Below the pieces are notes generated by a model, which was given only the letters and a program-made list of their open reading frames with translations, was not told where the DNA came from and did not search any database. From positions 1-19,954 of the IMG/VR virus record IMGVR_UViG_2671180903_000004: a stretch of 19,954 nt of DNA, one strand, 5' to 3'. The position numbers and the translations under genes were made by a program. Source of the stretch: a virus (Duplodnaviria; Heunggongvirae; Uroviricota; Caudoviricetes). Each line of letters opens with the position of its first letter. Position 1 is the first letter of the stretch. Shown in pieces: positions 8,173-19,954 of the stretch.

Positions 8173-8568
8173 ATGGCAAAAGTATTTACACCAGAAGAGC
8201 GGGAAGAAGTGAAGGCGCGCATTGTGGAATTCGTGCGCCTGAGCGGACGAGAAACTTTTCGACAACTGGCAGATAAAACGGGTGTCAGTAAGACCGCTAT
8301 TCGTCGTTTATCTGGTGCGCTTGCGGCCAGTGGTGATGTCTGGCTCTGTGATTGCGGGGTATTTCCATCAGAGCAGGCGTATCGCGTATGGCGTAAGACA
8401 CCGGAGAAGGCTGCTGACCCGACACTGATTCGAAAGTTACCAGACGGAGAAATACGCCGCTACGACAGGCGCCTGAATATAATCTGTCGCGAGTGCCGGA
8501 AGAGCGAAGCTATGCAGCGTGTACTGGCATTTTATCAAGGAAATGTTAGGTATTTTAGACGTTACTAG
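8173..8568 (+). CDS. Hypothetical HTH protein with C-terminal Cys cluster (131 aa)
   Basis: ATG 8173 with GGAGG SD 7 nt upstream (track start 8158 is TTG); HTH-like FRQLADKTGVSKTAIRRL; CDCG...CRECRK. Confidence 0.55.
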   Translation: MAKVFTPEEREEVKARIVEFVRLSGRETFRQLADKTGVSKTAIRRLSGALAASGDVWLCDCGVFPSEQAYRVWRKTPEKAADPTLIRKLPDGEIRRYDRRLNIICRECRKSEAMQRVLAFYQGNVRYFRRY

Positions 8569-8721
8569 ATTAAAGAGCATTAGTTCAGATGTGAATTGAC
8601 ATTTTCATGGCGCAGGGTAGAGCCAGCGTGGTTGTCCGCTTTGCGTCAAAACCAGATATTACCAGATTTAGACATATATTCCCGATAGCCCTGCTCTGAT
8701 GCTACACTCTGTGCTATTTTC

Positions 8722-9408
8722 ATGACCCCAATAAAAATATTTATGACTATTGCTGATTTCAAACGGCCTAAATTGGAACTCCCAAACGGGGCAAACAAAC
8801 TACTACTGCACTCTTGCTGTGCTCCATGTTCCGGTGAAGTGATGGAGGCGCTTCAGGCCTCGGGAATCGACTACACCATCTTTTTCTACAACCCGAACAT
8901 TCATCCTCAGAAAGAGTATTTAATTCGTAAGGATGAAAATATTCGCTTTGCTGAACAACACGGCGTGCCGTTTATCGATGCTGATTACGACACCGACAAC
9001 TGGTTTGAACGTGCCAAAGGAATGGAATGGGAGCCTGAGAGGGGGATCCGTTGTACCATGTGTTTTGACATGCGTTTTGAGCGGACAGCGTTGTACGCTG
9101 CTGAAAATGGTTTCAGTGTGATCAGTAGTTCACTGGGCATTTCACGCTGGAAAAATATGCAGCAGGTTAACGAGTGTGGGCGGCGAGCTGTTGCGCATTA
9201 TCCGGGTATGGTGTACTGGGATTATAACTGGCGCAAGCAGGGCGGCTCGTCCCGTATGATTGAAATCAGCAAGCGCGAAAAATTCTATCAGCAGGAATAT
9301 TGTGGCTGTGTGTATTCTCTGCGCGATACCAATCTACACCGCAAATCTCAGGGACGCCCTCTTATCAAAATTGGCCAACTCCACTACGGAAAAGAAGAGA
9401 AGGAGTGA
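8722..9408 (+). CDS. queH: QueH-like protein (DUF208, epoxyqueuosine reductase family), tentative
   Basis: Motif [11 protein letters not shown] near the N-terminus plus further Cys pairs (CTMC, CGC), length 228 aa, consistent with recalled DUF208/QueH features. Alternative start at 8743; neither has a strong SD. Own ~150-bp upstream intergenic region. Confidence 0.6.
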
Positions 9409-9439
9409 TTTTATGGATCACCTTTCTGATTGATTTCAT

Positions 9440-9645
9440 ATTGGCGAGGTGACGTGAGTTAAGTAGAATGGCTGCGGGTGCTTGAGGCTATCTGTCTCAG
9501 GCATGAACACTGAAAGGCAGACAGAGAAAAGCCCCAGTTAACATTACGCGTCCTGCAAGACGCTTAACATTAATCTGAGGCCCAATCTATGTCTCACAAA
9601 TGTAGGTTAGCCTCTTACGTGCCGAAAGGCAAGGAGAAGCAGGCT
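9440..9645 (+). promoter_or_regulatory. hok-type mRNA leader with expected antisense (sok-like) region
   Basis: Long untranslated leader upstream of hok; GGCGAGGTG at ~9446 is partly complementary to the 3' CACCTC element, as in hok mRNA 5'/3' pairing. Antisense RNA not directly identified. Confidence 0.4.
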
Positions 9646-9801
9646 ATGAAGCAGCAAAAGGCGATGTTAATCGCCCTGATCGTCATCTGTATTACCGTCG
9701 TAGTGACGGCACTGGTAACGAGGAAAGACCTCTGCGAGGTACGAATCCGAACCGGCCAGACGGAGGTCGCTGTCTTCGTAGCCTACGAATCTGAGAAGTA
9801 A
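9646..9801 (+). CDS. hok: Hok/Gef-family type I toxin (51 aa)
   Basis: MKQQKAMLIALIVICITVVVTALVTRKDLCEVRIRTGQTEVAVFVAYESEK matches the Hok/Gef family closely; AAGGAG SD 9 nt upstream. Confidence 0.85.
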   Translation: MKQQKAMLIALIVICITVVVTALVTRKDLCEVRIRTGQTEVAVFVAYESEK

Positions 9802-9808
9802 GAAACCA

Positions 9809-9830
9809 GGCGAGGGAGAAATCCCTCGCC
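9809..9830 (+). other. Stable hairpin at the 3' end of the hok transcript (fold-back element)
   Basis: GGCGAGGG (9809-9816) pairs with CCCTCGCC (9823-9830), 6-nt loop; 8 nt after the hok stop. Confidence 0.5.
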
Positions 9831-9905
9831 ACCTCTGATGTGTCAGGCATCCTCAACGCACCTGAGATAAAATCTATTTGGCTGTTTCTGGGTTCGAACT
9901 GATGA

Positions 9906-10259
9906 TTATTTAGTGCTAATACATGATTTAATTCCCTGAATCCTCTTGCTTTTCCCATTGGTGGGGTCTAAGACCCCTCGAAGGGAATAAAAATCAATGA
10001 TAGTAGAACCATCTGCCAACTTATAAATGTCGGCATTATCTGCAACCGCTAATACGCTGTAATACTTGCCAATTTTTTGAGACGTGATAGTGGCTAAGAG
10101 AGGTGTACGCTGCCACTCACTGAGAATGCATTCTTGTATTTCTTGTGGTGGAGAATTTGTTTTGAACGAGATAATAACATTTTGTTCTTCTCTGTAGTTA
10201 TAAGGGTTGACGCATCCTGAAATTGCAAAAACCAATAGAAAACAAATTGTTCTATTCAT
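9906..10259 (-). CDS. Putative lipoprotein (117 aa), AT-rich cargo gene
   Basis: Signal peptide with lipobox FAISGC, Val at +2; markedly AT-rich gene and flanks; convergent with hok and on the opposite strand to the surrounding nin-like genes. Confidence 0.65.
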   Translation of the reverse strand: MNRTICFLLVFAISGCVNPYNYREEQNVIISFKTNSPPQEIQECILSEWQRTPLLATITSQKIGKYYSVLAVADNADIYKLADGSTIIDFYSLRGVLDPTNGKSKRIQGIKSCISTK

Positions 10260-10320
10260 TTAGAAGCCCTTTTATAAGTATTTCTTGGTTATTTAAGTTT
10301 TTTGTTAGTGAAAATATAAA

Positions 10321-10620
10321 CTATAAAAAGTCAGATTCATAACTTTGCCCTCCATGGTAAATGCCAGCGATAAAGACTTTATTGCCATCAACGGCAAAAG
10401 CAATAATCGTTCTGTGGCGGAAGTGAGTTACTCGCATTCCCTGGCGAATATCATCGCGTTTATTGCCCCGATGTGGGAATGTAGAAAACCCATCAAGATA
10501 ATCAAGAAGCGCATTGGCATAATTGTCAGCAATGACGCTTCCTGCTTTCTCCGTTATATATCCGTGCAGGTTTATTATCTGCTGTTCGGCCTCGGGGGTA
10601 ATGATGACTTCAAATGTCAT
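10321..10620 (-). CDS. parE: ParE/RelE-superfamily toxin (99 aa)
   Basis: Starts 5 nt after the antitoxin stop; C-terminal RVTHFRHRTIIAFAVDGNKVFIAGIYHGG resembles ParE; typical size. Confidence 0.75.
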   Translation of the reverse strand: MTFEVIITPEAEQQIINLHGYITEKAGSVIADNYANALLDYLDGFSTFPHRGNKRDDIRQGMRVTHFRHRTIIAFAVDGNKVFIAGIYHGGQSYESDFL

Positions 10621-10625
10621 GCAGA

Positions 10626-10883
10626 TTACTTCCCGGATCGAATCGCGGCGCGAACCTGTGAAATGGAGCGTCCGTTGTTTGGATTTTCGCGGATAGAATC
10701 AAGAGAGGGGGCGGCTGAATGCGTTAACCACGCTTCGATTGCTTTATCGCGCTCATTCAGTGCGCGAAGCCCTTCACGAATGACCTCGCTTTCTGAAGCA
10801 TAGGCACCGGAAGCCACACGGGCGCGCACCATGTCAGCCATCTCGTTAGTTAATGTAATGCTGAATTGTTGGGTTGTACGCAT
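10626..10883 (-). CDS. parD: ParD-family (RHH) antitoxin (85 aa)
   Basis: Internal ATG at 10883..10881 with GAGGT SD 6 nt upstream; motif ITLTNEMADMVRARVASGAYASESEVIREGLRAL resembles ParD/CopG antitoxins. Confidence 0.75.
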   Translation of the reverse strand: MRTTQQFSITLTNEMADMVRARVASGAYASESEVIREGLRALNERDKAIEAWLTHSAAPSLDSIRENPNNGRSISQVRAAIRSGK

Positions 10884-11018
10884 GGTAAACCTCACGGAGT
10901 AGGATAGAACACTATTCGATGATAGCACGCTGCCTGTTGACGACAACAGAAATCAGAGACAATATTGCCGCACGCCAGCTTGAACAACTGGCACCTGCTG
11001 CGCCAGCAGAGAAAACAG

Positions 11019-11297
11019 ATGGCGCACGATACCAAACCATACAATTCTGATAATTCAGCCGTCTTTGCCAGCAGGCACGGGCGGCGTTCTCATGCATTCA
11101 AATCTGACTGGTATCAGCACGACCCCTGCACCGAAGAACAGGCTGAATGGCTGATTCAGTGTTACCGCAGGCGCGGATACGAGGTTAAGAAAGCCCTCAC
11201 CCTCGATTATCGTCACTGGATAATCTACGTCAGACTCCCTTATTCCGAACGCCCACCGCGTCCGTCCCGCACATATCAGCAACGCATCTGGAGGTAA
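11019..11297 (+). CDS. Hypothetical protein (92 aa)
   Basis: ATG 11019 chosen inside the track ORF; weak RBS; stop immediately precedes the next gene's start. Confidence 0.45.
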   Translation: MAHDTKPYNSDNSAVFASRHGRRSHAFKSDWYQHDPCTEEQAEWLIQCYRRRGYEVKKALTLDYRHWIIYVRLPYSERPPRPSRTYQQRIWR

Positions 11298-11298
11298 C

Positions 11299-12345
11299 GT
11301 GCGGGTATTACTTCGACCTGTTCTGGTACCGGAGTTCGGGCTGGTGGTCCTTAAGCCGGGCCGTGAATCCATGCAGGTATTTCATAACCCTCGAGTGCTG
11401 GTGGAGCCTGAACCGAAAAGCATGCGCGGGCTGCCGTCTGGAGTCGTTCCTGCCGTTCGCCAGCCGCTGGCGGAAGATAAATCATTACTGTCATTTTTCA
11501 GCAACGAACGGGTGATTCGCGCTGCAGGCGGTGCTGGTGCACTGTCTGACTGGCTCCTGCGTCATGTCAAATCCTGCCAGTGGCCTCATGGTGACTACCA
11601 TCACAGTGAAACCGTCATACATCGTTACGGTACCGGCGCGATGGTGTTGTGCTGGCACTGCGACAACCAGCTGCGTGACCAGACTTCCGAATCACTCGGG
11701 CAACTTGCTCACCAAAACCTGTCAGCATGGATGATTGACGTCATACGCCATGCAATGAATGGCACGCAGGAGCGGGAATTATCGCTGGCTGAATTATCCT
11801 GGTGGGCTGCCTGCAATCAGGTGGCGGACGCGCTACCGGAGGCAGTATTGCGTCGTTCGCTGGGATTACGTGCGGAAAAAATCCGCCCGGTGTACCGCGA
11901 AAGCGACATCATACCGGGAGAACCGACCGCCACCAGCATACTGAAGCAGCGCACAAAAAATCTTGCGCCGCTGCCTCACGCCCACCAGCAAAACCCGCCA
12001 CAGGAAAAGACGGTGGTCAGCATTGCTGTTGATCCGGAGTCTCCGGAATCTTTAATGAAGCGACCTAAACGTCGCCGTTGGGTAAATGAGAAATATACGC
12101 GCTGGGTAAAGACACAGCCGTGTGCGTGTTGTGGTAAGCCTGCTGACGATCCGCATCACCTGATTGGTCATGGTCAGGGGGGAATGGGGACAAAGGCCCA
12201 CGATATTTTCACGCTACCGTTGTGCCGGGAGCACCACAACGAACTTCATGCAGACCCGCTGGAGTTTGAGAAAAAGTACGGCTCTCAGATTGAGTTAATT
12301 TTTCGTTTTCTTGATCACGCCTTTGCGACTGGCGTGCTCGGGTAA
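11299..12345 (+). CDS. DUF968-type prophage protein with C-terminal HNH-like zinc-finger motif (YdfU-like)
   Basis: GTG 11299 with GGAGGT SD 4 nt upstream, right after the upstream stop; C-terminus CACCGKPADDPHHLIGHGQGGMGTKAHDIFTLPLCREHHNELH is HNH-like; size (348 aa) and position before rusA fit recalled YdfU-type proteins. Confidence 0.7.
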   Translation: MRVLLRPVLVPEFGLVVLKPGRESMQVFHNPRVLVEPEPKSMRGLPSGVVPAVRQPLAEDKSLLSFFSNERVIRAAGGAGALSDWLLRHVKSCQWPHGDYHHSETVIHRYGTGAMVLCWHCDNQLRDQTSESLGQLAHQNLSAWMIDVIRHAMNGTQERELSLAELSWWAACNQVADALPEAVLRRSLGLRAEKIRPVYRESDIIPGEPTATSILKQRTKNLAPLPHAHQQNPPQEKTVVSIAVDPESPESLMKRPKRRRWVNEKYTRWVKTQPCACCGKPADDPHHLIGHGQGGMGTKAHDIFTLPLCREHHNELHADPLEFEKKYGSQIELIFRFLDHAFATGVLG

Positions 12346-12357
12346 AAGAGGTGACTG

Positions 12358-12717
12358 ATGCTCATAGATTTGGTTTTACCTTACCCGCCGACGGTGAACA
12401 CTTACTGGCGACGCCGTGGCAGCACATATTTTGTATCAAAAGCCGGGGAGCGTTATCGCCGGGCAGTGGTGCTTATTGTTCGCCAGCAGCGACTGAAATT
12501 AAGCCTGTCCGGACGGCTGGCAATAAAAATTATTGCAGAGCCACCGGATAAGCGTCGTCGTGACCTGGACAATATTCTGAAAGCACCGCTGGATGCGCTG
12601 ACGCATGCGGGAGTGTTAATGGACGATGAGCAGTTTGATGAAATCAATATTGTACGTGGTCAGCCAGTATCTGGTGGACGGCTGGGTGTGAAGATTTACA
12701 AAATTGAGAGTGAGTGA
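12358..12717 (+). CDS. rusA: Holliday-junction resolvase RusA
   Basis: 119 aa; motifs LPYPPTVNTYW and DKRRRDLDNILKAPLDALTHAGVLMDD match recalled RusA; AGAGGTGA SD upstream. Confidence 0.85.
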   Translation: MLIDLVLPYPPTVNTYWRRRGSTYFVSKAGERYRRAVVLIVRQQRLKLSLSGRLAIKIIAEPPDKRRRDLDNILKAPLDALTHAGVLMDDEQFDEINIVRGQPVSGGRLGVKIYKIESE

Positions 12718-12725
12718 GCGTAAAT

Positions 12726-13256
12726 ATGATATATCCGGAAATTACAGGCAAAAGCGGCGAACATTTACGCCTGAACACGCTGGAAGCAGTCTGGATCCAG
12801 GGGAAATTACGGATGTGGGGGCGGTGGTCGTATATCGGTGGGGGTAAATCCGGAAATATGTTTAACCGGTTACTGGTTTCGAAAAAGCTGACGAAAACAG
12901 CAGTTAATGAGGTTTTACGCAGCATGAAGAAATCCGGGCTGGAAAAACCGGAACTTGAGGCATTTTTTCGGGATATGACCAGAGGGAAGCAGAAGAGCTG
13001 GTTGTCACATTGTACAGACACAGAGGCGTTGATTATTGATCGCGTTATCAGTGAGGTGCTTGGGGAATATCCCGGGCTAATCAATATTCTCCGGCAAAGG
13101 TACGAAGGACGGGGAATGAGTAAGAGAAAAATGGCAGAATGTTTAAATCGTACTCACCCGGAATGGTGTTTCAGCACATGTGAGAAACGTATTGCAGGTT
13201 GGTTAGCCGTGGCTGAACACATGCTTTATGTACCTATGCACGATTCATTTCGATAA
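12726..13256 (+). CDS. Q: Late-gene antiterminator, Q-like (176 aa)
   Basis: Sits directly upstream of a promoter-like region and tR'-type terminator and after rusA, the canonical Q position; ATG 12726 preferred over the GTG at 12714 that overlaps the rusA stop. Sequence family not independently confirmed. Confidence 0.65.
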   Translation: MIYPEITGKSGEHLRLNTLEAVWIQGKLRMWGRWSYIGGGKSGNMFNRLLVSKKLTKTAVNEVLRSMKKSGLEKPELEAFFRDMTRGKQKSWLSHCTDTEALIIDRVISEVLGEYPGLINILRQRYEGRGMSKRKMAECLNRTHPEWCFSTCEKRIAGWLAVAEHMLYVPMHDSFR

Positions 13257-13351
13257 AAAAAGCTTGCTTTTTTACGCAGAAACAGCTTGAATTCCTGTAA
13301 GCTTCGCAAAGCTGTATCGCGAGGCGAAATGCAAGTTTTTTCGCACAAGGA
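13257..13351 (+). promoter_or_regulatory. Putative late promoter (PR'-like) and Q-utilisation region
   Basis: Intergenic region between Q and a strong intrinsic terminator; -35-like TTGAAT present. Exact -10 and start site not resolved by eye. Confidence 0.4.
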
Positions 13352-13375
13352 AGCCACCGGAAGGTGGTTTTTTTG
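13352..13375 (+). terminator. Rho-independent terminator (tR'-like)
   Basis: CCACC-GGAA-GGTGG stem-loop (13354-13367) followed by TTTTTTT (13368-13374). Confidence 0.7.
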
Positions 13376-13495
13376 TGTCCGTAATATACAGCAGCGCAAT
13401 AAATTCGCTGGTGGTTATTAATACCGTTCTTTCAGCTTGCTGGCTTTTTCGACAAGAGTTATTGGTGTGTCACGTTAACCGGAAAAGGAAAAGAC

Positions 13496-13693
13496 ATGCT
13501 AAAACAGCAGGATATGACAGAAACCGCCAGAGTGGTGTTTAATGAATTAAGCGTTACCGACCCGGCGACAGTCGGGGAGATTGCGCAGAATACTTACCTT
13601 TCACGCGAACGCTGCCAGTTAATACTGACCCAGCTGGTTATGGCGGGTCTGGCAGACTATCAGTTCGGTTGTTACAGACGCCTTCCGCAGTGA
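13496..13693 (+). CDS. Small winged-helix-like protein (65 aa), unknown function
   Basis: ATG 13496 with AAGGAAAAG SD; ATVGEIAQNTYLSRERCQLILTQLVMAGLADY looks like a wHTH recognition region; enclosed between two intrinsic terminators. Confidence 0.5.
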   Translation: MLKQQDMTETARVVFNELSVTDPATVGEIAQNTYLSRERCQLILTQLVMAGLADYQFGCYRRLPQ

Positions 13694-13704
13694 AGGCTTT
13701 TTTA
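13680..13704 (+). terminator. Rho-independent terminator overlapping the stop of the 65-aa ORF
   Basis: GCCTTC-cgcagt-GAAGGC (13680-13697) followed by TTTTTTT; the TGA stop lies in the loop/stem. Confidence 0.55.
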
Positions 13705-13843
13705 TTTGTGGTAAATGGGCGGCTGGTGGGTGTTAGGGGCACCCACCAGCCATCTGCTCATGCGTTGGGTTCACAAGCAAACCTCAGGCCCACTGCTTTG
13801 CGCAAAAGCAGAATGAGCCTATCAGAGACAGGCTTAATGATCC

Positions 13844-14893
13844 ATGCTTAATACTGTAAAAATATCCAGTTGTGAGTTAATCAACGCCGACTGCCTGGAA
13901 TTTATCCGGTCGTTACCCGAAAATTCTGTTGACCTGATAGTCACGGACCCGCCGTACTTTAAAGTGAAGCCTGAGGGCTGGGATAACCAGTGGAAGGGCG
14001 ACGATGATTACCTGAAGTGGCTGGACCAGTGTCTGGCGCAGTTCTGGCGGGTGCTGAAACCTGCCGGAAGTCTTTACCTGTTCTGTGGTCATCGCCTGGC
14101 ATCTGATATCGAAATCATGATGCGTGAACGCTTCAGTGTGCTGAACCATATTATCTGGGCGAAGCCTTCCGGACGCTGGAACGGGTGCAACAAGGAAAGC
14201 CTGCGGGCGTATTTCCCCGCCACAGAGCGCATTCTGTTCGCGGAACATTATCAGGGGCCGTATCGTCCGAAAGATGCCGGGTATGAGGCGAAGGGCAGGG
14301 CACTGAAACAGCATGTGATGGCCCCGCTGATTTCTTACTTTCGTGATGCATGCGCGGCCCTGGGGATAACGGCAAAACAGATTGCAGATGCCACAGGAAA
14401 GAAAAACATGGTGTCGCACTGGTTCAGTGCCAGTCAGTGGCAGTTGCCGAACGAAAGCGATTATCTGAAATTACAGGCACTGTTTGCTAGGGTGGCAGAA
14501 GAGAAGCATCAGCGGGGGGAACTGGAAAAGCCCCACCACCAGCTGGTGGATACGTATACTTCACTGAACCGACAGTATGCGGAGCTGCAGAGTGAATATA
14601 AACATCTGCGGCGGTATTTTGGTGTGACGGCGCAGGTGCCGTACACGGATGTGTGGACACATAAACCGGTGCAGTTCTATCCCGGGAAACATCCGTGCGA
14701 AAAACCGGCAGAAATGCTGCAGCAGATAATCAGCGCAAGTAGTCGTCCTGGTGATCTGGTTGCGGATTTTTTCATGGGGTCGGGTTCAACGGTAAAAGCG
14801 GCACTGGCGCTCGGGCGTCGTGCGATTGGCGTTGAACTGGAGACAGGACGTTTTGAGCAGACAGTCAGGGAAGTTCAGGATTTAATCGTTTGA
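13844..14893 (+). CDS. Orphan DNA methyltransferase, beta-class (motif IV before motif I), probably N6-adenine
   Basis: DPPY (VTDPPYF) near the N-terminus and FxGxG (FFMGSGST) near the C-terminus, with a long variable region between; no adjacent restriction endonuclease gene. Confidence 0.85.
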   Translation: MLNTVKISSCELINADCLEFIRSLPENSVDLIVTDPPYFKVKPEGWDNQWKGDDDYLKWLDQCLAQFWRVLKPAGSLYLFCGHRLASDIEIMMRERFSVLNHIIWAKPSGRWNGCNKESLRAYFPATERILFAEHYQGPYRPKDAGYEAKGRALKQHVMAPLISYFRDACAALGITAKQIADATGKKNMVSHWFSASQWQLPNESDYLKLQALFARVAEEKHQRGELEKPHHQLVDTYTSLNRQYAELQSEYKHLRRYFGVTAQVPYTDVWTHKPVQFYPGKHPCEKPAEMLQQIISASSRPGDLVADFFMGSGSTVKAALALGRRAIGVELETGRFEQTVREVQDLIV

Positions 14894-14942
14894 AACGGAT
14901 GAGATTGCAGAATTAATTACGCACCATTATTATTCTGCTCCC

Positions 14943-15018
14943 GGCCCTTTAGCTCAGTGGTGAGAGCGAGCGACTCATAATCGCCAGGTCGCTGGTTCAA
15001 ATCCAGCAAGGGCCACCA
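14943..15018 (+). tRNA. tRNA with CAT anticodon (Met or Ile2/lysidine type, ileZ-like)
   Basis: Hand-folded cloverleaf: acceptor GGCCCTT/AAGGGCC, D-arm GCTC...GAGC, anticodon loop CTCATAA, T-arm GCTGG-TTCAAAT-CCAGC, encoded CCA. Confidence 0.85.
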
Positions 15019-15025
15019 TCACATA

Positions 15026-15099
15026 CCGCCATTAGCTCATCAGGAAAGAGCGCCAGCCTTCGAAGCTGGTTGCGCGGAGTTCGGGTCCCCGAAGGCGGT
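15026..15099 (+). tRNA. tRNA-Arg(TCG)-like, possibly degenerate
   Basis: Anticodon arm CCAGC-CTTCGAA-GCTGG is clean, but hand-folding shows an A-A mismatch in the acceptor stem, an A-C mismatch in the T-stem, T-loop TTCGGGT, C at position 1 and no encoded CCA. Confidence 0.5.
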
Positions 15100-15115
15100 T
15101 CATTATCTGTATCCT

Positions 15116-15192
15116 GCGTTGTTAGCTCAGCCGGACAGAGCAATTGCCTTCTAAGCAATCGGTCACTGGTTCGAATCCAGTACAACGCGCCA
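15116..15192 (+). tRNA. tRNA-Arg (anticodon TCT)
   Basis: Acceptor GCGTTGT/ACAACGC, anticodon loop CTTCTAA, T-arm ACTGG-TTCGAAT-CCAGT, discriminator G, encoded CCA. Confidence 0.85.
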
Positions 15193-15206
15193 CACTTATT
15201 TTCCCT

Positions 15207-15232
15207 GGCTCGCTTTTGCGGGCCTTTTTTTT
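15207..15232 (+). terminator. Strong rho-independent terminator after the tRNA cluster
   Basis: GGCTCGC-tttt-GCGGGCC stem-loop (one G-U pair) followed by eight T residues (15225-15232). Confidence 0.7.
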
Positions 15233-15428
15233 AAATGTCTCACAATTCAGGCGGTTGACTGTTGTCTGGTTTGCGGGGAGTTTGTTAAAAGAAACTGGCA
15301 TGGTGAATCCCCCTGTGCGGAGGGGCAATCAGCGAGTAGGTATATGGGATAATCGCGGATTCAGGTGCTGGTACTGAATTCACCGGGAGGCACCCGGCAC
15401 CATGCAATGGCACATAGCGCCACTCTCC

Positions 15429-15456
15429 AGCCCCTCTCCGGAGGGGCTGTTTATAT
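15429..15456 (+). terminator. Terminator-like hairpin (perfect 8-bp stem AGCCCCTC/GAGGGGCT, 4-nt loop) followed by a T-rich tract
   Basis: Stem 15429-15436 / 15441-15448, then GTTTATATTGATTTT; lies between the structured region after the tRNAs and the stop of the reverse ORF. Confidence 0.45.
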
Positions 15457-15483
15457 TGATTTTGTCAGATGTGAGTAAACTCC

Positions 15484-15819
15484 TTATGGACTTTGTTGTT
15501 TTAGCCCATAAGGACATATTTGCAGAGTGCAACGGTTATTAAAGCATTCATTCAATACGTTATCTGTATTTGTAGGGCATTCCTGGCTGTTTTTGATTAA
15601 ATTCCAGAATGTTTTATTGAATGGTACTACGTTGTAAATGGTTACAGGTAGCACTTTGTTATTGAGCATGATGCCTGTGTGAGTCAGTGTAAATATACTT
15701 TCAGGAGGTAAGAAAGCATCCGATTGATACCAGATTATTAATTTTATTTTACTCCATATGACTGAAAAAGATATTCCGCATGATGGCTGGATAACTGTAT
15801 CAATCACAATCCACTTCAT
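15484..15819 (-). CDS. Hypothetical protein (111 aa), AT-rich reverse-oriented cargo at the stx-equivalent position
   Basis: ATG at 15819..15817 with AAGGAAA SD; gene and flanks are clearly AT-rich versus neighbours; minus-strand -35-like TTTACA with imperfect -10 candidates upstream (plus 15858-15886); no recognisable family. Confidence 0.35.
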
Positions 15820-16079
15820 TTGGTTTCCTTGTTTATGCATTGCTGGTGATGTTCTGAAAAGTATAAATGATATTTTTGAATGTAAACCATAGAGCAGAAT
15901 TATTTTTCTGATGTTGTTTATTGTTTATTTAAATGCAGGGTGGTTTATATCTCGTCTTGTAGTTTATCCATGCATATCTGCTTGATGATGAGGTTTTTAT
16001 TTAAGGTATGGTTTTGTGTTTTTTCTGTATTACATGTCAGGTATTTTAAAGAATCATTTTTCAGATGGTGGAAAGAACC

Positions 16080-17945
16080 ATGGCATTTAAACACTATGAT
16101 GTTGTCAGGGCGGCGTCGCCGTCAGATCTTGCGGAAAAGCTGACACATAAACTGAAAGAGGGCTGGCAGCCGTTTGGTAGTCCGGTGGCCATAACCCCTT
16201 ATACTCTGATGCAGGCGATTGCAGCAGAAGGTGCAGTAATCAGCGCCACCAGCGACCCGGAGTATTACTTTGTTGTGGTTCTGGCAGGGCAGTCAAACGG
16301 CATGTCGTATGGTGAAGGCCTTCCGCTGCCGGGGACATATGACCGTCCGGACCCGCGTATTAAGCAACTGGCGCGTCGCAGTACGGTGACACCGGGCGGT
16401 GCAGCATGCAAATATAACGACATCATTCCGGCGGACCATTGTCTGCATGATGTGCAGGACATGAGCCGTCTTAACCATCCGAAAGCGGACCTGTCAAAGG
16501 GGCAGTACGGAACCGTGGGGCAGGGGCTGCATATCGCCAAAAAACTGCTGCCGTTTATACCGGCGAATGCGGGCATTCTGCTGGTTCCGTGCTGTCGTGG
16601 TGGTTCAGCGTTCACCACCGGAGCTGATGGCACATACAGTGACGCGAGTGGTGCCTCGGAGAATTCAACCCGCTGGGGTGTGGACAAGCCGCTGTATAAG
16701 GACCTTATCGGTCGAACAAAAGCGGCACTGGAGAAGAACCCGAAAAATGTGCTGTTTGCCGTGGTGTGGATGCAGGGGGAATTTGATTTTGGCGGTACGC
16801 CGGCAAATCATGCCGCACAGTTTGGTGCGCTGGTTGATAAATTCCGTGCAGACCTGGCGGATATGGCAGGCCAGTGCGTCGGTGGCTCTGCTGGCGGTGT
16901 TCCCTGGATATGCGGGGACACGACGTATTTCTGGAAGCAGAAGAACGAATCCACGTACCAGACGGTGTACGGCAGCTATAAAAATAAAACGGAAAAGAAT
17001 ATCCATTTCGTACCGTTCATGACCGATGAGAACGGGGTGAATGTGCCGACGAACAAACCGGAAGAAGACCCGGACATTCCGGGTATCGGTTATTACGGTT
17101 CGAAATGGCGTGACAGCTCAGCCACCTGGACGTCACAGGACAGGGCGAGCCATTTCAGTTCATGGGCTCGCCGTGGGATTATTTCCGACCGTCTGGCAAC
17201 GGCGATTCTGAGCTGCGCGGGTAAGTCTTCTGCGTTTGTTAATGGTACTGCCGGGGTGGTTGTTCCAGACAGGCCGGTTACCACCTCAGAGTCTGTAATT
17301 TTTTACGATGCCAAAAAAGCTACAGACAATCAGCTGAAACCTTATGGCTGGGACGGTATGTATGGCAGACGCACACTGGTTGATGACAGCGGCAATAAAG
17401 CTCTGCGAATTGAGAAAAATAACAGCGCGAAATCCTGGTCAATGTACTGTGATATTGCTGCAGACAAGGCAAAACTTTTACTGGAAAAAGGCGGGGAAAT
17501 TGCTGTCCGGTTTAAAATCCCCGAAAACGTCAATCTTGAGACAACCAGAAACAAGTATGCCTTTGGTTTGTACTGGCGAATAGCGGAATGGCCGGGTGAG
17601 GGTGGTGAAGGCCATCTGAGTTCTTTCTTTGTCCAGACAGATAAAGCCAGTATTAATGTTGCATACCATCATACAGTTAATCAACAAAAAGAACTTGGCA
17701 CGTTTGGCGCATTCGACCATGACTGGCATACGCTTGCATTTAAATTTAAGGGCAGTAACAGCATTAATGTTACTCCGGTGCTTGATGGTGTGGATGGACA
17801 GGCGTTTGACCTGGTGAAATGGGCCAATACTGCTAATGGACTCAACAGGTTTGTCATTACGGATATTACAGGTAGTGCAGAAACCTACCCTGTACTTATT
17901 GATACGGTGGAAGTTAAAGCAAACAAAGCTGGAGCAGCCGCATAA
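16080..17945 (+). CDS. nanS: Prophage O-acetyl sialate esterase, NanS-p-like (N-terminal DUF1737-like region, SASA/SGNH esterase core, C-terminal lectin-like region)
   Basis: 621 aa from ATG 16080; motif VVLAGQSNGMSYGEG (esterase Ser motif); N-terminus MAFKHYDVV...EGWQPFGSPV recalled from the large ORF downstream of stx in Stx phages; position just upstream of the lysis cassette. Confidence 0.75.
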   Translation: MAFKHYDVVRAASPSDLAEKLTHKLKEGWQPFGSPVAITPYTLMQAIAAEGAVISATSDPEYYFVVVLAGQSNGMSYGEGLPLPGTYDRPDPRIKQLARRSTVTPGGAACKYNDIIPADHCLHDVQDMSRLNHPKADLSKGQYGTVGQGLHIAKKLLPFIPANAGILLVPCCRGGSAFTTGADGTYSDASGASENSTRWGVDKPLYKDLIGRTKAALEKNPKNVLFAVVWMQGEFDFGGTPANHAAQFGALVDKFRADLADMAGQCVGGSAGGVPWICGDTTYFWKQKNESTYQTVYGSYKNKTEKNIHFVPFMTDENGVNVPTNKPEEDPDIPGIGYYGSKWRDSSATWTSQDRASHFSSWARRGIISDRLATAILSCAGKSSAFVNGTAGVVVPDRPVTTSESVIFYDAKKATDNQLKPYGWDGMYGRRTLVDDSGNKALRIEKNNSAKSWSMYCDIAADKAKLLLEKGGEIAVRFKIPENVNLETTRNKYAFGLYWRIAEWPGEGGEGHLSSFFVQTDKASINVAYHHTVNQQKELGTFGAFDHDWHTLAFKFKGSNSINVTPVLDGVDGQAFDLVKWANTANGLNRFVITDITGSAETYPVLIDTVEVKANKAGAAA

Positions 17946-18084
17946 TTGCTAAAAAAAGCCGCCAGCGGCAGGAATGGAAGCTGGCGGAGGTAATCCCAAT
18001 GGAGAATGTAAAGAAAAGATGCTTTCGTACATTGGTTTTTTAAATGAAAACAATTCTCATTGTCAACCATAACGGTAAGAAATT

Positions 18085-18267
18085 ATGACATTTATTCATC
18101 AGGTGATGCTGTACTTCTGTACGGCGGTCTGTGTGCTGTATCTTCTTTCGGGTGGGTACAGGGCTGTGCGCGATTTCTGGTGCAGGCAGATTGATAAAAG
18201 GGCCGCTGAGAAAATCAGCGCCAGTCAGTCAGCCGGAAGCAAACCCGAAGAACCCGTTACTCCTTAA
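18085..18267 (+). CDS. Small membrane protein (60 aa), unknown function
   Basis: One hydrophobic segment (VMLYFCTAVCVLYLLSGG); weak RBS. Confidence 0.4.
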   Translation: MTFIHQVMLYFCTAVCVLYLLSGGYRAVRDFWCRQIDKRAAEKISASQSAGSKPEEPVTP

Positions 18268-18292
18268 CAACCCCTTTCAGCGAGAAAATCCC

Positions 18293-18538
18293 ATGTCAGA
18301 AATCACATCCCTGGTCACTGCAGAGGCAGTGAAGGAAGTCCTGCGCTCTGAAGAAGTCCGGAGCGCACTGAAACAGAAACTTCGCCAGAATCTTGAGTCG
18401 CGTCTTGATGCAGAAGTGGATGCCATTCTGGATGAGCTGCTGGGCGTAGCAGCGGTTCCTGAGCCGGAAGGTATCGCGGGTGACGGGAGTGCTTCAGATG
18501 GCGGTGAACCTACACCTGACAGCGACATGATGATGTAA
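18293..18538 (+). CDS. Small acidic protein (81 aa), unknown function
   Basis: Internal ATG 18293 with GAGAAAA upstream; predicted helical and acidic with a C-terminal D/E/G/S-rich tail. Confidence 0.45.
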
Positions 18539-18614
18539 GCATGCGCAAGGGACCATCGGTGTGTGCCGGTGGTCTTTATATTGTTGTGAGCTTCCGGATT
18601 GCGGGAGACGGGGT

Positions 18615-18830
18615 ATGTACCAGATGGAAAAAATCACAACAGGTGTGTCATACACCACGTCAGCGGTGGGAACGGGCTACTGGTTCCTGCAGTTGCTGGA
18701 CAGGGTTTCCCCGTCTCAGTGGGCGGCAATAGGCGTGCTGGGGAGTCTGTTGTTTGGGCTGCTGACATATCTGACTAACCTGTATTTCAAAATCAGAGAG
18801 GACCGTCGTAAGGCGGCGCGGGGAGAGTAA
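18615..18830 (+). CDS. S: Class II holin / pinholin, phage 21 S-like, with dual-start motif
   Basis: [71 protein letters not shown] closely matches recalled S21; two in-frame ATGs (18615, 18624) give the antiholin/holin pair; two TM segments. Confidence 0.85.
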
Positions 18831-18834
18831 AGCG

Positions 18835-19179
18835 ATGAAGAAAAAATACGAACTGGTTGTTAAAGGGATAAATAATTACCCGAATAAGATTACTGTTACT
18901 GTGGCACTGGAAATTGGTGGGTATCCGTCACTGTTGTTGCCAGATGTGGCGATTAGTCTTGACCGTACTGAAGATGCCACGCTGGAGTTTTACGAAGCTG
19001 AGGCGAAAAAGCAGGCGAAGCAGTTTTTCATGGATGTTGCTGCCGGGTTATGTGAAGGGGATGGTCCGTTGCCGGAAAAGCGCCCCGTAATTTTAGAGGC
19101 GCAGGATGTGTTGATAACCTACAGAGGAAAACTACCGGGAATAATTACTGGTTCTCTGAAGACTCCACCGCTGGCCTGA
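18835..19179 (+). CDS. Hypothetical protein (114 aa) inserted between holin and endolysin
   Basis: ATG 18835 with GGAGAG SD, 5 nt after the holin stop; no TM segment or signal peptide; no recognisable family. Confidence 0.55.
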   Translation: MKKKYELVVKGINNYPNKITVTVALEIGGYPSLLLPDVAISLDRTEDATLEFYEAEAKKQAKQFFMDVAAGLCEGDGPLPEKRPVILEAQDVLITYRGKLPGIITGSLKTPPLA

Positions 19180-19229
19180 AGACTTAACATATCCAGGGAT
19201 TTGAAATCGATAAACCCTGATAAATATCC

Positions 19230-19763
19230 ATGAACACCAAAATCAGATACGGCCTGTCGGCTGCCGTTCTGGCGCTGATTGCCGCAGGTGCGCCTGCGCC
19301 TGAAATCCTCGACCAGTTTCTGGATGAAAAGGAAGGTAACCACACCACGGCATACCGTGATGGCGCGGGTATCTGGACCATCTGCCGCGGTGCCATCCTG
19401 GTGGATGGTAAACCTGTCGTCCCGGGCATGAAGTTGTCGAAGGAAAAATGCGACCAGGTTAACGCCATTGAACGTGATAAGGCGCTGGAGTGGGTGGAGC
19501 GCAATATTAAAGTACCGCTGACCGAACCCCAGAAAGCGGGGATCGCGTCATTCTGTCCGTACAACATTGGTCCCGGTAAGTGTTTCCCGTCGACGTTTTA
19601 TAAACGAATTAATGCAGGTGATCGAAAAGGTGCCTGCGAAGCGATTCGCTGGTGGATTAAGGACGGTGGCAGAGACTGCCGTATTCGCTCAAACAACTGT
19701 TACGGTCAGGTATCCCGTCGCGACCAGGAGAGTGCGCTGGCGTGCTGGGGAATTGACAGATAA
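19230..19763 (+). CDS. R: SAR endolysin (phage lysozyme, T4-lysozyme fold, R21-like)
   Basis: N-terminal signal-anchor-release segment LSAAVLALIAAGAPAP followed by the catalytic E...D...T motif (EGNHTTAYRDGAGIWTICRG); 177 aa. Confidence 0.9.
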   Translation: MNTKIRYGLSAAVLALIAAGAPAPEILDQFLDEKEGNHTTAYRDGAGIWTICRGAILVDGKPVVPGMKLSKEKCDQVNAIERDKALEWVERNIKVPLTEPQKAGIASFCPYNIGPGKCFPSTFYKRINAGDRKGACEAIRWWIKDGGRDCRIRSNNCYGQVSRRDQESALACWGIDR

Positions 19764-19857
19764 GCAGAATATTTTGCTGAAAAATAAGGCGTGGCCACGC
19801 GGGCGGATAACACGAAATCCTGCGAACTGGCGAAACGTAAGTGAATAAAAGTAAAAA

Positions 19858-19892
19858 CCCCGTTTGTTGGCACCAAGCGGGGTTTTGTGTTT
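19858..19892 (+). terminator. Terminator-like hairpin downstream of the endolysin
   Basis: CCCCG...CGGGG stem (19858-19862 / 19878-19882) with a 15-nt loop, followed by TTTTGTGTTT. Confidence 0.4.
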
Positions 19893-19919
19893 CTGACCTT
19901 GAGTAAGGCAAGGGAGAAC

Positions 19920-19954
19920 ATGGCGAAGTATAAACGAATTCTGTTGAGGTTGAC
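19920..19954 (+). CDS. 5' end of an unidentified gene (MAKYKRILLRL...), continues past the window end
   Basis: ATG 19920 with AAGGGAGAA SD; only 11 codons visible, so product is unknown. Confidence 0.35.
   Translation, partial: MAKYKRILLRL

Follow-up and report, generated by a model that had tools for sequence, protein, structure and literature searches.

A hok/mok/sok locus, a small lipoprotein gene and a parD-parE pair in an E. coli Qin/DicF-type prophage: probably a mosaic of mobile accessory modules

When a type I toxin-antitoxin (TA) locus, a small lipoprotein gene and a type II TA pair lie back to back in a prophage, do they form a unit with a common function, or have separate pieces of cargo come to lie side by side? 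This question is raised by a stretch of viral DNA of 19,954 nucleotides (nt) (IMG/VR record IMGVR_UViG_2671180903_000004, positions 1 to 19,954; the whole stretch is called the window hereafter), in which a hok/mok/sok locus, an AT-rich lipoprotein gene and a parD-parE pair together occupy positions 9441-10946, about 1.5 kb. A first reading, made from the sequence only, had recognised a hok-family toxin with leader and 3' fold-back hairpin, a lipoprotein and a ParD/ParE pair, and had described them as cargo inside an otherwise rightward nin-like region. These identities are borne out by Pfam, Rfam and PHROG matches and by a lipobox, and so is the placement, as the genes flanking the cluster (QueH, DUF968, RusA and Q) all lie on the plus strand. 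The coordinates given at that time were essentially right as well, with the exception of the right edge of the hok locus, which had been set at 9840 and is about 20 nt short, the fold-back element (fbi) lying beyond the hairpin. Concerning the question itself, the comparisons presented here indicate that the cluster is not a conserved functional unit; it is probably a mosaic in which three prophage accessory modules, the lipoprotein module among them, are independently mobile. The features are compiled in Table 1.

Table 1 Features of the cargo cluster and of the prophage around it. Positions refer to the window unless another locus is named.
Feature	Position	Strand	Basis or remark
hok mRNA promoter-like site (TTGGCG, 17 nt, TAGAAT)	9441-9469	+	consensus scan
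Full-length hok mRNA: leader, mok/hok, 3' hairpin	9476-9862	+	Rfam, fold, homology
5' tac element of hok mRNA	9476-9488	+	
Sok-like antisense RNA, putative	9527-9597	-	coordinates transferred from annotated sokW of 933W
mok frame, 70 aa, overlapping hok	9589-9801	+	list of open reading frames (ORFs); mokW of 933W
Putative sok promoter (TTGCCT, 17 nt, TAACCT)	9604-9632	-	read from sequence; same stretch identical in 933W
hok toxin gene, 51 aa, MKQQKAMLIALIVICITVVVTALVTRKDLCEVRIRTGQTEVAVFVAYESEK	9646-9801	+	Pfam; maps onto hokW of 933W
G+C-rich hairpin, hok mRNA 3' stem-loop	9809-9830	.	minus-strand terminator scan; folds
3' fold-back element (fbi) of hok mRNA	9851-9862	+	
AT-rich lipoprotein module, GC 0.352	9863-10320	-	bounded by hok homology end and parE stop codon
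Lipoprotein gene, 117 aa	9906-10259	-	ORF list; PHROG 914; family alignments
AT-rich spacer, 61 bp, parE to lipoprotein gene	10260-10320	-	no terminator, no convincing promoter
parE toxin gene, 99 aa	10321-10620	-	Pfam ParE_toxin (PF05016) E=2.4e-9
parD antitoxin gene, 85 aa, ribbon-helix-helix N-terminus	10626-10883	-	Pfam ParD_antitoxin (PF03693) E=1.6e-7
parDE promoter-like site (TTGTCG, 16 nt, TG-extended TATCAT)	10919-10946	-	consensus scan
ORF right of the parDE promoter	10965-11297	+	C-terminal 66 residues match PHROG 1212 (unknown function)
DicF small RNA (sRNA)	2661-2712	-	Rfam 76.7 bits
cI-like repressor	4222-4995	-	
QueH, full-length epoxyqueuosine reductase	8722-9408	+	Pfam E=1.1e-65; nin region, just upstream of hok
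DUF968 gene	11299-12345	+	
Three tRNAs (CAT, TCG, TCT anticodons)	14943-15192		
STnc100 sRNA	15269-15458		
118-aa ORF without annotation	15484-15840	-	
NanS-p-like sialate esterase (DUF1737+SASA+DUF6645)	16065-17945		
Cor homologue, example from another locus	L037 5595-5843		

Distribution, breakpoints and haplotypes

A 1.6-kb query matched 4951 of 5426 complete E. coli genomes, almost all of them via hok. The parDE genes were matched in 365 genomes and the lipoprotein module in 7, in each of which it lies between hok and parE; the same four genes are already annotated by PGAP in RefSeq in these seven genomes. Among the ranked matches, wherever hok and parDE lie within about 1.3 kb of each other, the lipoprotein gene is present between them. 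The edges of the modules can be located by homology. The similarity of the hok locus to hokW of phage 933W and to hokD of K-12 stops exactly at 9862, and in loci which carry parDE only the similarity to the window starts at 10322, by the parE stop codon, so that the AT-rich DNA from 9863 to 10320 stands out as a separate piece.

This is also reflected in a second haplotype, which is found in E. coli strain GF60 and has the same gene order, but in which the lipoprotein module is only 82% identical to that of the window. When the two E. coli haplotypes are compared, synonymous divergence (dS) amounts to 0.016 in parD, 0.15 in parE and 0.76 in the lipoprotein gene (for parDE, window 10321-10883 was compared with L002 4922-5484). 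Such a steep rise across the cassette points to a recombination breakpoint in or near parE, and the value for the lipoprotein gene suggests a much deeper past than that of the neighbour on its right.

The K-12 prophage Qin carries relB-relE-hokD-rem (relBEF) in the same slot, upstream of ydfU/DUF968, with relBE and relF/hokD being co-transcribed (PMC3598666). Over its coding and 3' part this hok gene shares 94.8% identity with the window, where homology sets in again at position 11002. In contrast to the complete hok locus of the window, Qin hokD lacks a mok/sok leader, its homology beginning at window position 9632, and it is located downstream of relBE on the same strand, whereas the window has ParDE instead of RelBE, on the opposite strand and converging on hok, with the lipoprotein gene intervening. 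Since relBE stands beside hokD in Qin, a type II module next to hok at this slot is a known theme; the variable slot of Qin/DicF-type prophages, which reaches from the hok 3' end to rem/ydfU, accumulates TA combinations, relBE-hokD in K-12 and hok with parDE here.

The lipoprotein gene and parDE had been suggested to form one unit on account of their common direction and short spacing, and one could go further and regard parD, parE and the lipoprotein gene as a genuine three-component system, e.g. a tripartite TA or defence system, with the lipoprotein as its sensor, effector or accessory component. Indeed, parE and the lipoprotein gene are co-directional and 61 bp apart with no terminator between them, the E. 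coli lipoprotein gene was never found without parDE, and two alleles as deeply diverged as those described above hold the same position beside parE. Co-transcription is therefore plausible, given a spacer with neither a terminator nor a recognisable promoter, but the unit is not conserved: 358 of the 365 parDE-bearing E. coli genomes lack the lipoprotein gene, and the homology of the parDE-only cassette ends at the parE stop codon. Moreover, the relatives of the lipoprotein outside E. coli are encoded in tail modules with a promoter and terminator of their own and never beside a TA locus, and ParD and ParE reside in the cytoplasm, from which the lipoprotein is exported. A three-component system thus appears improbable to us.

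The two toxin-antitoxin modules

The sequence of the hok/mok/sok locus is that of a complete and ordinary type I TA system of the hokW-sokW type. Hok covers 42 of 42 positions of the Pfam HOK_GEF profile (E=7.6e-23), and the mok frame matches PHROG 251, 'MokW-like host killing' (E=1e-31). The leader matches the full Rfam model RF01794 (sok/hok leader) with 116 bits, compared to a gathering threshold of 59, at 9476-9651 on the plus strand, which means that the model describes the hok mRNA leader in sense orientation; a permissive Rfam scan of 9380-11050 returned this model only. When 9476-9865 was folded, the 5' end (9476-9489) paired with 9851-9862 in both the minimum free energy and the centroid structure (z=-6.4), and this predicted pairing of 5' and 3' end corresponds to the tac-fbi lock that defines hok mRNAs. 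As a side note on the use of the Rfam model, RF01794 is named 'sok antitoxin' but matches the strand of the hok mRNA leader, and a strand call made from the model alone misplaces Sok.

The closest known system is hokW-sokW of 933W and of the Sakai prophage Sp5, to which the window is 93% identical at the DNA level across 9455-9862, from the -10 element to fbi. The -10 element of the hok promoter and the sequence downstream of it are conserved in 933W hokW, and so are the mok/hok overlap, the position and promoter of Sok and the 3' hairpin, which shows compensatory differences between the two. The sok promoter is a putative assignment, because a simple consensus scan did not report the site. 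Differences concern three positions of the 51-residue toxin, the upstream -35 region and both flanks; downstream of hokW in 933W lies a YgiW-like gene, whereas in the window the lipoprotein/parDE cassette converges on the hok 3' end. A degenerate chromosomal copy such as K-12 hokD was considered and ruled out, the whole leader, mok and the Sok region being intact.

The hokW-sokW locus of Sp5 is a tested type I TA system, in which HokW is toxic and is neutralised by sokW RNA (PMC8621323). Upon addition of mitomycin C, sokW RNA is lost and HokW increases in a RecA-dependent manner, and deletion of hokW-sokW halves Sp5 release, so that a role in lysis and phage release on induction, rather than in defence, has been demonstrated for the locus (PMC8621323). 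Considering the 93% identity and the intact regulatory elements, the behaviour of hokW-sokW is the default expectation for the hok locus of the window, i.e. by analogy Hok would be toxic and Sok would neutralise it. The E. coli genome closest to the window over the lipoprotein gene and parDE (99.8%), NZ_CP025840.1 of strain 214-4, matches the window only from 9576 onwards; its hok therefore seems to lack the promoter and the 5' leader, and the trio appears partly truncated there.

The parD-parE pair likewise reads as an ordinary type II TA system of known kind. Besides the Pfam matches, ParE matches PHROG 5232, 'toxin' (E=5.4e-41), and a profile built from 16 ParE homologues retrieved ParE chains only from the PDB (6x0a with E=9e-6, 5ceg, 7ycs and 8c24) and no RelE; ParD matches TIGR02606 (E=1.5e-14) and, among solved structures, ParD chains only (3kxe_C, 7ycv and 7b22). 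As in the ParDE systems of RK2, Caulobacter (ParD1/ParE1, PDB 3kxe) and Mesorhizobium (5ceg/6x0a), the antitoxin gene comes first and is separated from the toxin gene by a gap of 5 nt, the N-terminus of ParD is of the ribbon-helix-helix type and ParE belongs to PF05016. The window copy differs from the solved members by a low similarity (the best being the profile match to 6x0a) and by being prophage-borne. Members of the ParE family poison gyrase, and the labile ParD represses the operon and neutralises ParE; we assume by analogy that parDE of the window follows this family mechanism, with ParD neutralisation and gyrase poisoning.

The promoter-like site in front of parD is also found in the parDE-only locus L003. 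Elsewhere the parDE cassette is again inverted relative to its neighbours, both in a nin-region locus without hok and in the early-left region of the Stx2a phage ArgO145, and it is already annotated in the 365 E. coli genomes and in ArgO145-type Stx2a phages. Literature searches on prophage parDE returned no paper on the parDE genes of the window. To the right, the ORF at 10965-11297 diverges from parDE over about 80-140 bp, where divergent promoters may sit; its PGAP version in relatives is shorter (92 aa).

The sequence-only reading had offered the cluster as a candidate for abortive infection or prophage stabilisation. Neither function is specifically supported by our data, and abortive infection may apply as a general possibility. 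Seen as an anti-phage abortive-infection island, the cluster would respond to an infection that stops host transcription, the labile Sok and ParD would decay, and Hok and ParE would then be lethal before the invading phage has matured. Among defence genes, TA modules carried by prophages form a class that recurs, and the variability of the slot, with a different TA combination in Qin, would be in line with such an island. In addition, hok/sok of plasmid R1 is mentioned in a passage of PMC8621323 as having been reported to lower T4 plating. However, at E<=0.01 no PADLOC model matched Hok/Mok, the lipoprotein, ParE, ParD or the ORF that follows, and the nearest tested relative, hokW-sokW, promotes the release of its own phage (PMC8621323). 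We therefore consider an abortive-infection island unlikely, noting that it would be compatible with a mosaic origin of the cluster.

The lipoprotein gene and its family

The lipoprotein gene stands out from its surroundings by its composition (GC 0.373 compared to 0.488 across the window) and matches PHROG 914, a family of unknown function, over its full length (E=2.8e-27). Its product starts with MNRTICFLLVFAISG followed by Cys, which corresponds to a signal peptide and the lipobox I-S-G-C, and contains the conserved residues Cys44 and Cys113. The residue after the lipid-modified cysteine, which according to the +2 rule decides lipoprotein sorting in E. coli, is Val and not Asp, pointing to the outer membrane as the probable destination. 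In the AlphaFold model (mean predicted local distance difference test score, pLDDT, of 82.7, with most 10-residue blocks from residue 31 on at >=90) a helix, a strand, a helix, four strands and a final helix form an alpha+beta topology. Structure matches of this model are generic and Flpp3-like; Flpp3 of Francisella (DUF3568; PDB 6pny/2mu4) is 14% identical, the window protein has no Pfam DUF3568 match, and the fold match gives no mechanism.

Profile searches against Pfam, NCBIfam and PADLOC gave zero matches for the lipoprotein of the window, and tblastn against 50,697 phage records gave none either. The trio of hok, lipoprotein gene and parDE is likewise carried by none of the sequenced phages in that collection. 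A literature search for PHROG 914 found nothing, and searches on exclusion lipoproteins returned no paper on this gene. A GC of 0.35-0.37, the lack of a recognisable promoter and the rarity in E. coli might suggest a silent or decaying remnant, e.g. AT-rich DNA under H-NS silencing. In the comparison of the two E. coli alleles, however, the ratio of non-synonymous to synonymous divergence (dN/dS) is 0.085 at the dS given above, which indicates a real gene under strong purifying selection. Together with an intact lipobox, both conserved cysteines in all family members and a fold that is predicted with confidence, this renders a remnant very improbable.

The family is small and rare: a word search found 12 clusters, and 40 representatives at 50% identity were found among 1.8 billion proteins. 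Members have about 113-125 residues, and the lipid-attachment cysteine is invariant in the 28 members compared, as are Cys44 and Cys113. Searched against Pfam, these 28 members matched no family but the lipid-attachment motif, with LPAM_1 being hit by 10 of them, and the database names of homologues are unnamed or 'hypothetical', with one 'putative phage-related lipoprotein'. About 30 loci with relatives of 25-60% identity were compared, from Rahnella, Pantoea, Serratia, Yersinia, Morganella and IMG/VR viral contigs, the family being spread across at least six genera of Enterobacterales inside tail gene clusters. No ParD, ParE or Hok homologue is encoded within 6 kb of the relatives of up to 60% identity, in 28 loci.

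In these loci the gene is located between the tail genes M and L or K and I, or before the tape-measure gene, while other relatives adjoin tail fibre or tail-fibre-assembly genes or lie at the prophage end near the integrase gene or umuDC. An extended -10 element (TGnTAnnnT) precedes the start codon by 34-46 nt in 18 of 20 distinct upstream regions (shuffled sequences: mean 1.5, maximum 6), strong intrinsic terminators lie behind it in those loci that were inspected, and a comparison with the 3-kb flanks showed the gene to be richer in AT at each of the 24 loci tested (on average by 7 points). In L041-L044 from Yersinia and Morganella, for instance, where the relatives are 25-27% identical, the gene sits between K and I, and strong intrinsic terminators come after it within the tail operon. 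An own promoter, an own terminator and AT-richness are the hallmarks of a moron, i.e. an autonomous insert expressed from the prophage, and on these grounds the family outside E. coli can be described as a free-standing AT-rich moron. In L022, L025 and L037 a Cor homologue, which shares 49% identity with the phi80 protein, is encoded one or two genes upstream of the lipoprotein homologue, and a hairpin and a promoter-like element separate the two, so that two lipoprotein morons are stacked ahead of the tail fibre gene. The order J, gp22-like, gp23-like, cor, lipoprotein, tail fibre resembles the cor moron region of phi80.

The E. coli copy differs from this pattern, as it is found in the early region, on the opposite strand and not near tail genes. 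Of the moron features, the window shows only the deviant composition; a promoter was not detected, and the hok hairpin, which is shared, is the sole terminator. More precisely, the 61 bp that separate the lipoprotein gene from parE contain, according to a consensus scan and inspection by eye, no terminator and no recognisable promoter of the sigma-70 type, and the extended -10 element of the family is absent from the upstream regions of both E. coli alleles. Read-through from the parDE promoter is thus a plausible source of lipoprotein transcripts in E. coli. The only terminator-like site for leftward transcription of parDE and the lipoprotein gene is the hok 3' hairpin, read as 9830-9809, and in the simplest reading the transcript would end in or near the hok 3' region. 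As hok is oriented sense to rightward early transcription and parDE antisense to it, prophage induction should favour both Hok and ParE, by more hok mRNA on the one hand and disturbed transcription of sok and parDE on the other hand.

What might the lipoprotein do? Cor (phi80, N15, HK022) and Llp (T5) are superinfection-exclusion lipoproteins, and the PHROG-914 family resembles them in consisting of small phage or prophage lipoproteins encoded by morons, with their own extended -10 element and terminator, beside tail and receptor-binding genes. It differs in showing no homology past the signal peptide, and its E. coli copy is not near tail genes. The small size of the protein and its export as a lipoprotein, the architecture of a moron, the proximity to cor and the linkage with genes for the tail tip and receptor binding make us favour, if only tentatively, receptor masking or superinfection exclusion as a possible function. 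Membership of a known exclusion family by homology to Cor was ruled out, since the mature domains are not homologous. The protein could instead act in the release of the phage itself or convert the envelope in another way.

The first of these alternatives would have the lipoprotein serve the lytic cycle of the phage, for instance in tail-tip assembly, in release or in keeping progeny off lysed debris, and not in the conversion of the lysogen. In its favour, the relatives are embedded in the tail-tip order M-L-K-I-J or lie beside tail fibre genes in about 30 loci from six genera. Yet the position within the tail cluster varies (at the M/L or the K/I junction, in front of the tape-measure gene or behind the tail fibre gene), most lambdoid phages lack the gene, the E. 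coli copy lies on the opposite strand in the early region, and an own promoter, a terminator and a deviant GC content are marks of a moron and not of a core tail gene. T5 Llp masks receptors on lysed cell debris, and a function of this kind would still be receptor blocking. A dedicated lytic-cycle role is in our opinion quite unlikely.

Taken together, we propose that three mobile modules occupy the variable slot between the hok 3' end and rem/ydfU (DUF968) of a Qin/DicF-type prophage. A folded-back and stable hok mRNA would be kept silent by the unstable Sok antisense RNA, and by analogy with Sp5 Hok would be made on prophage induction and lysis would be faster. Being inverted relative to the phage operon, parDE would be expressed from its own promoter in the lysogen, where ParD would neutralise the ParE toxin. 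The E. coli lipoprotein gene would have moved beside parE, lost its own promoter and probably be expressed by read-through from the parDE promoter, and its product would convert the envelope of the lysogen by masking a receptor or excluding superinfecting phages as Cor and Llp do.

Combining these steps, PHROG-914 would be a new receptor-masking or exclusion lipoprotein family of Enterobacterales lambdoid prophages, normally linked to tail-tip genes, which in a small E. coli lineage was captured downstream of parE and lost its promoter, with its expression being tied to the ParD-autoregulated promoter and its transcript running antisense into the hok fbi; as a whole we regard this scenario as doubtful. 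If true, envelope conversion and two TA systems would be coupled in one convergent transcription unit.

Several observations weigh against the interpretation developed here. The E. coli lipoprotein gene always occurs together with parDE and hok (in 7 of 7 genomes and in 5 viral contigs), and this constant association could reflect a selected unit instead of a single ancestral arrangement. Because the fold matches are generic, the exclusion function is argued from genomic context; compared with Cor, the lipoprotein shows no similarity beyond the signal peptide, and T5 Llp is not among its listed structure matches. An inverted-repeat operator was sought at the parDE promoter (10860-11000) and none was found. 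Furthermore, AT-rich spacers can hide weak or non-canonical promoters, so that the lipoprotein gene may have a promoter of its own.

With TA modules that are already annotated and a hokW system that is already characterised, the two toxin loci add little, and the practical value of the cluster, a mosaic of known kinds of prophage cargo, is modest. Of the three modules, only the lipoprotein family, which is without a Pfam family, is functionally uncharacterised, and its placement in tail clusters is a useful lead. Should the lipoprotein prove to be a receptor-blocking exclusion protein, Cor and Llp would be joined by a third such family, and a phage receptor so far unrecognised might come into view.

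Prophage setting

The window represents a lambdoid E. coli prophage of Qin/DicF type. Its left arm (2375-3988) is 92-97% identical to the dicB-ydfABC region of Qin in K-12, which makes the prophage a relative of Qin with a different cargo slot. Rightward from the cI-like repressor gene follow YdaT, replication genes, DUF1627, DUF977 and then QueH, and 3' of DUF968 are located RusA, a Q-type antiterminator, a DNA methylase, three tRNAs, STnc100, the NanS-p-like esterase and lysis genes. QueH is a tRNA-modification enzyme carried as phage cargo, which is present in strain GF60 too and not in JE86. The late region (13844-17945) is Stx-phage-like, but without stx genes.

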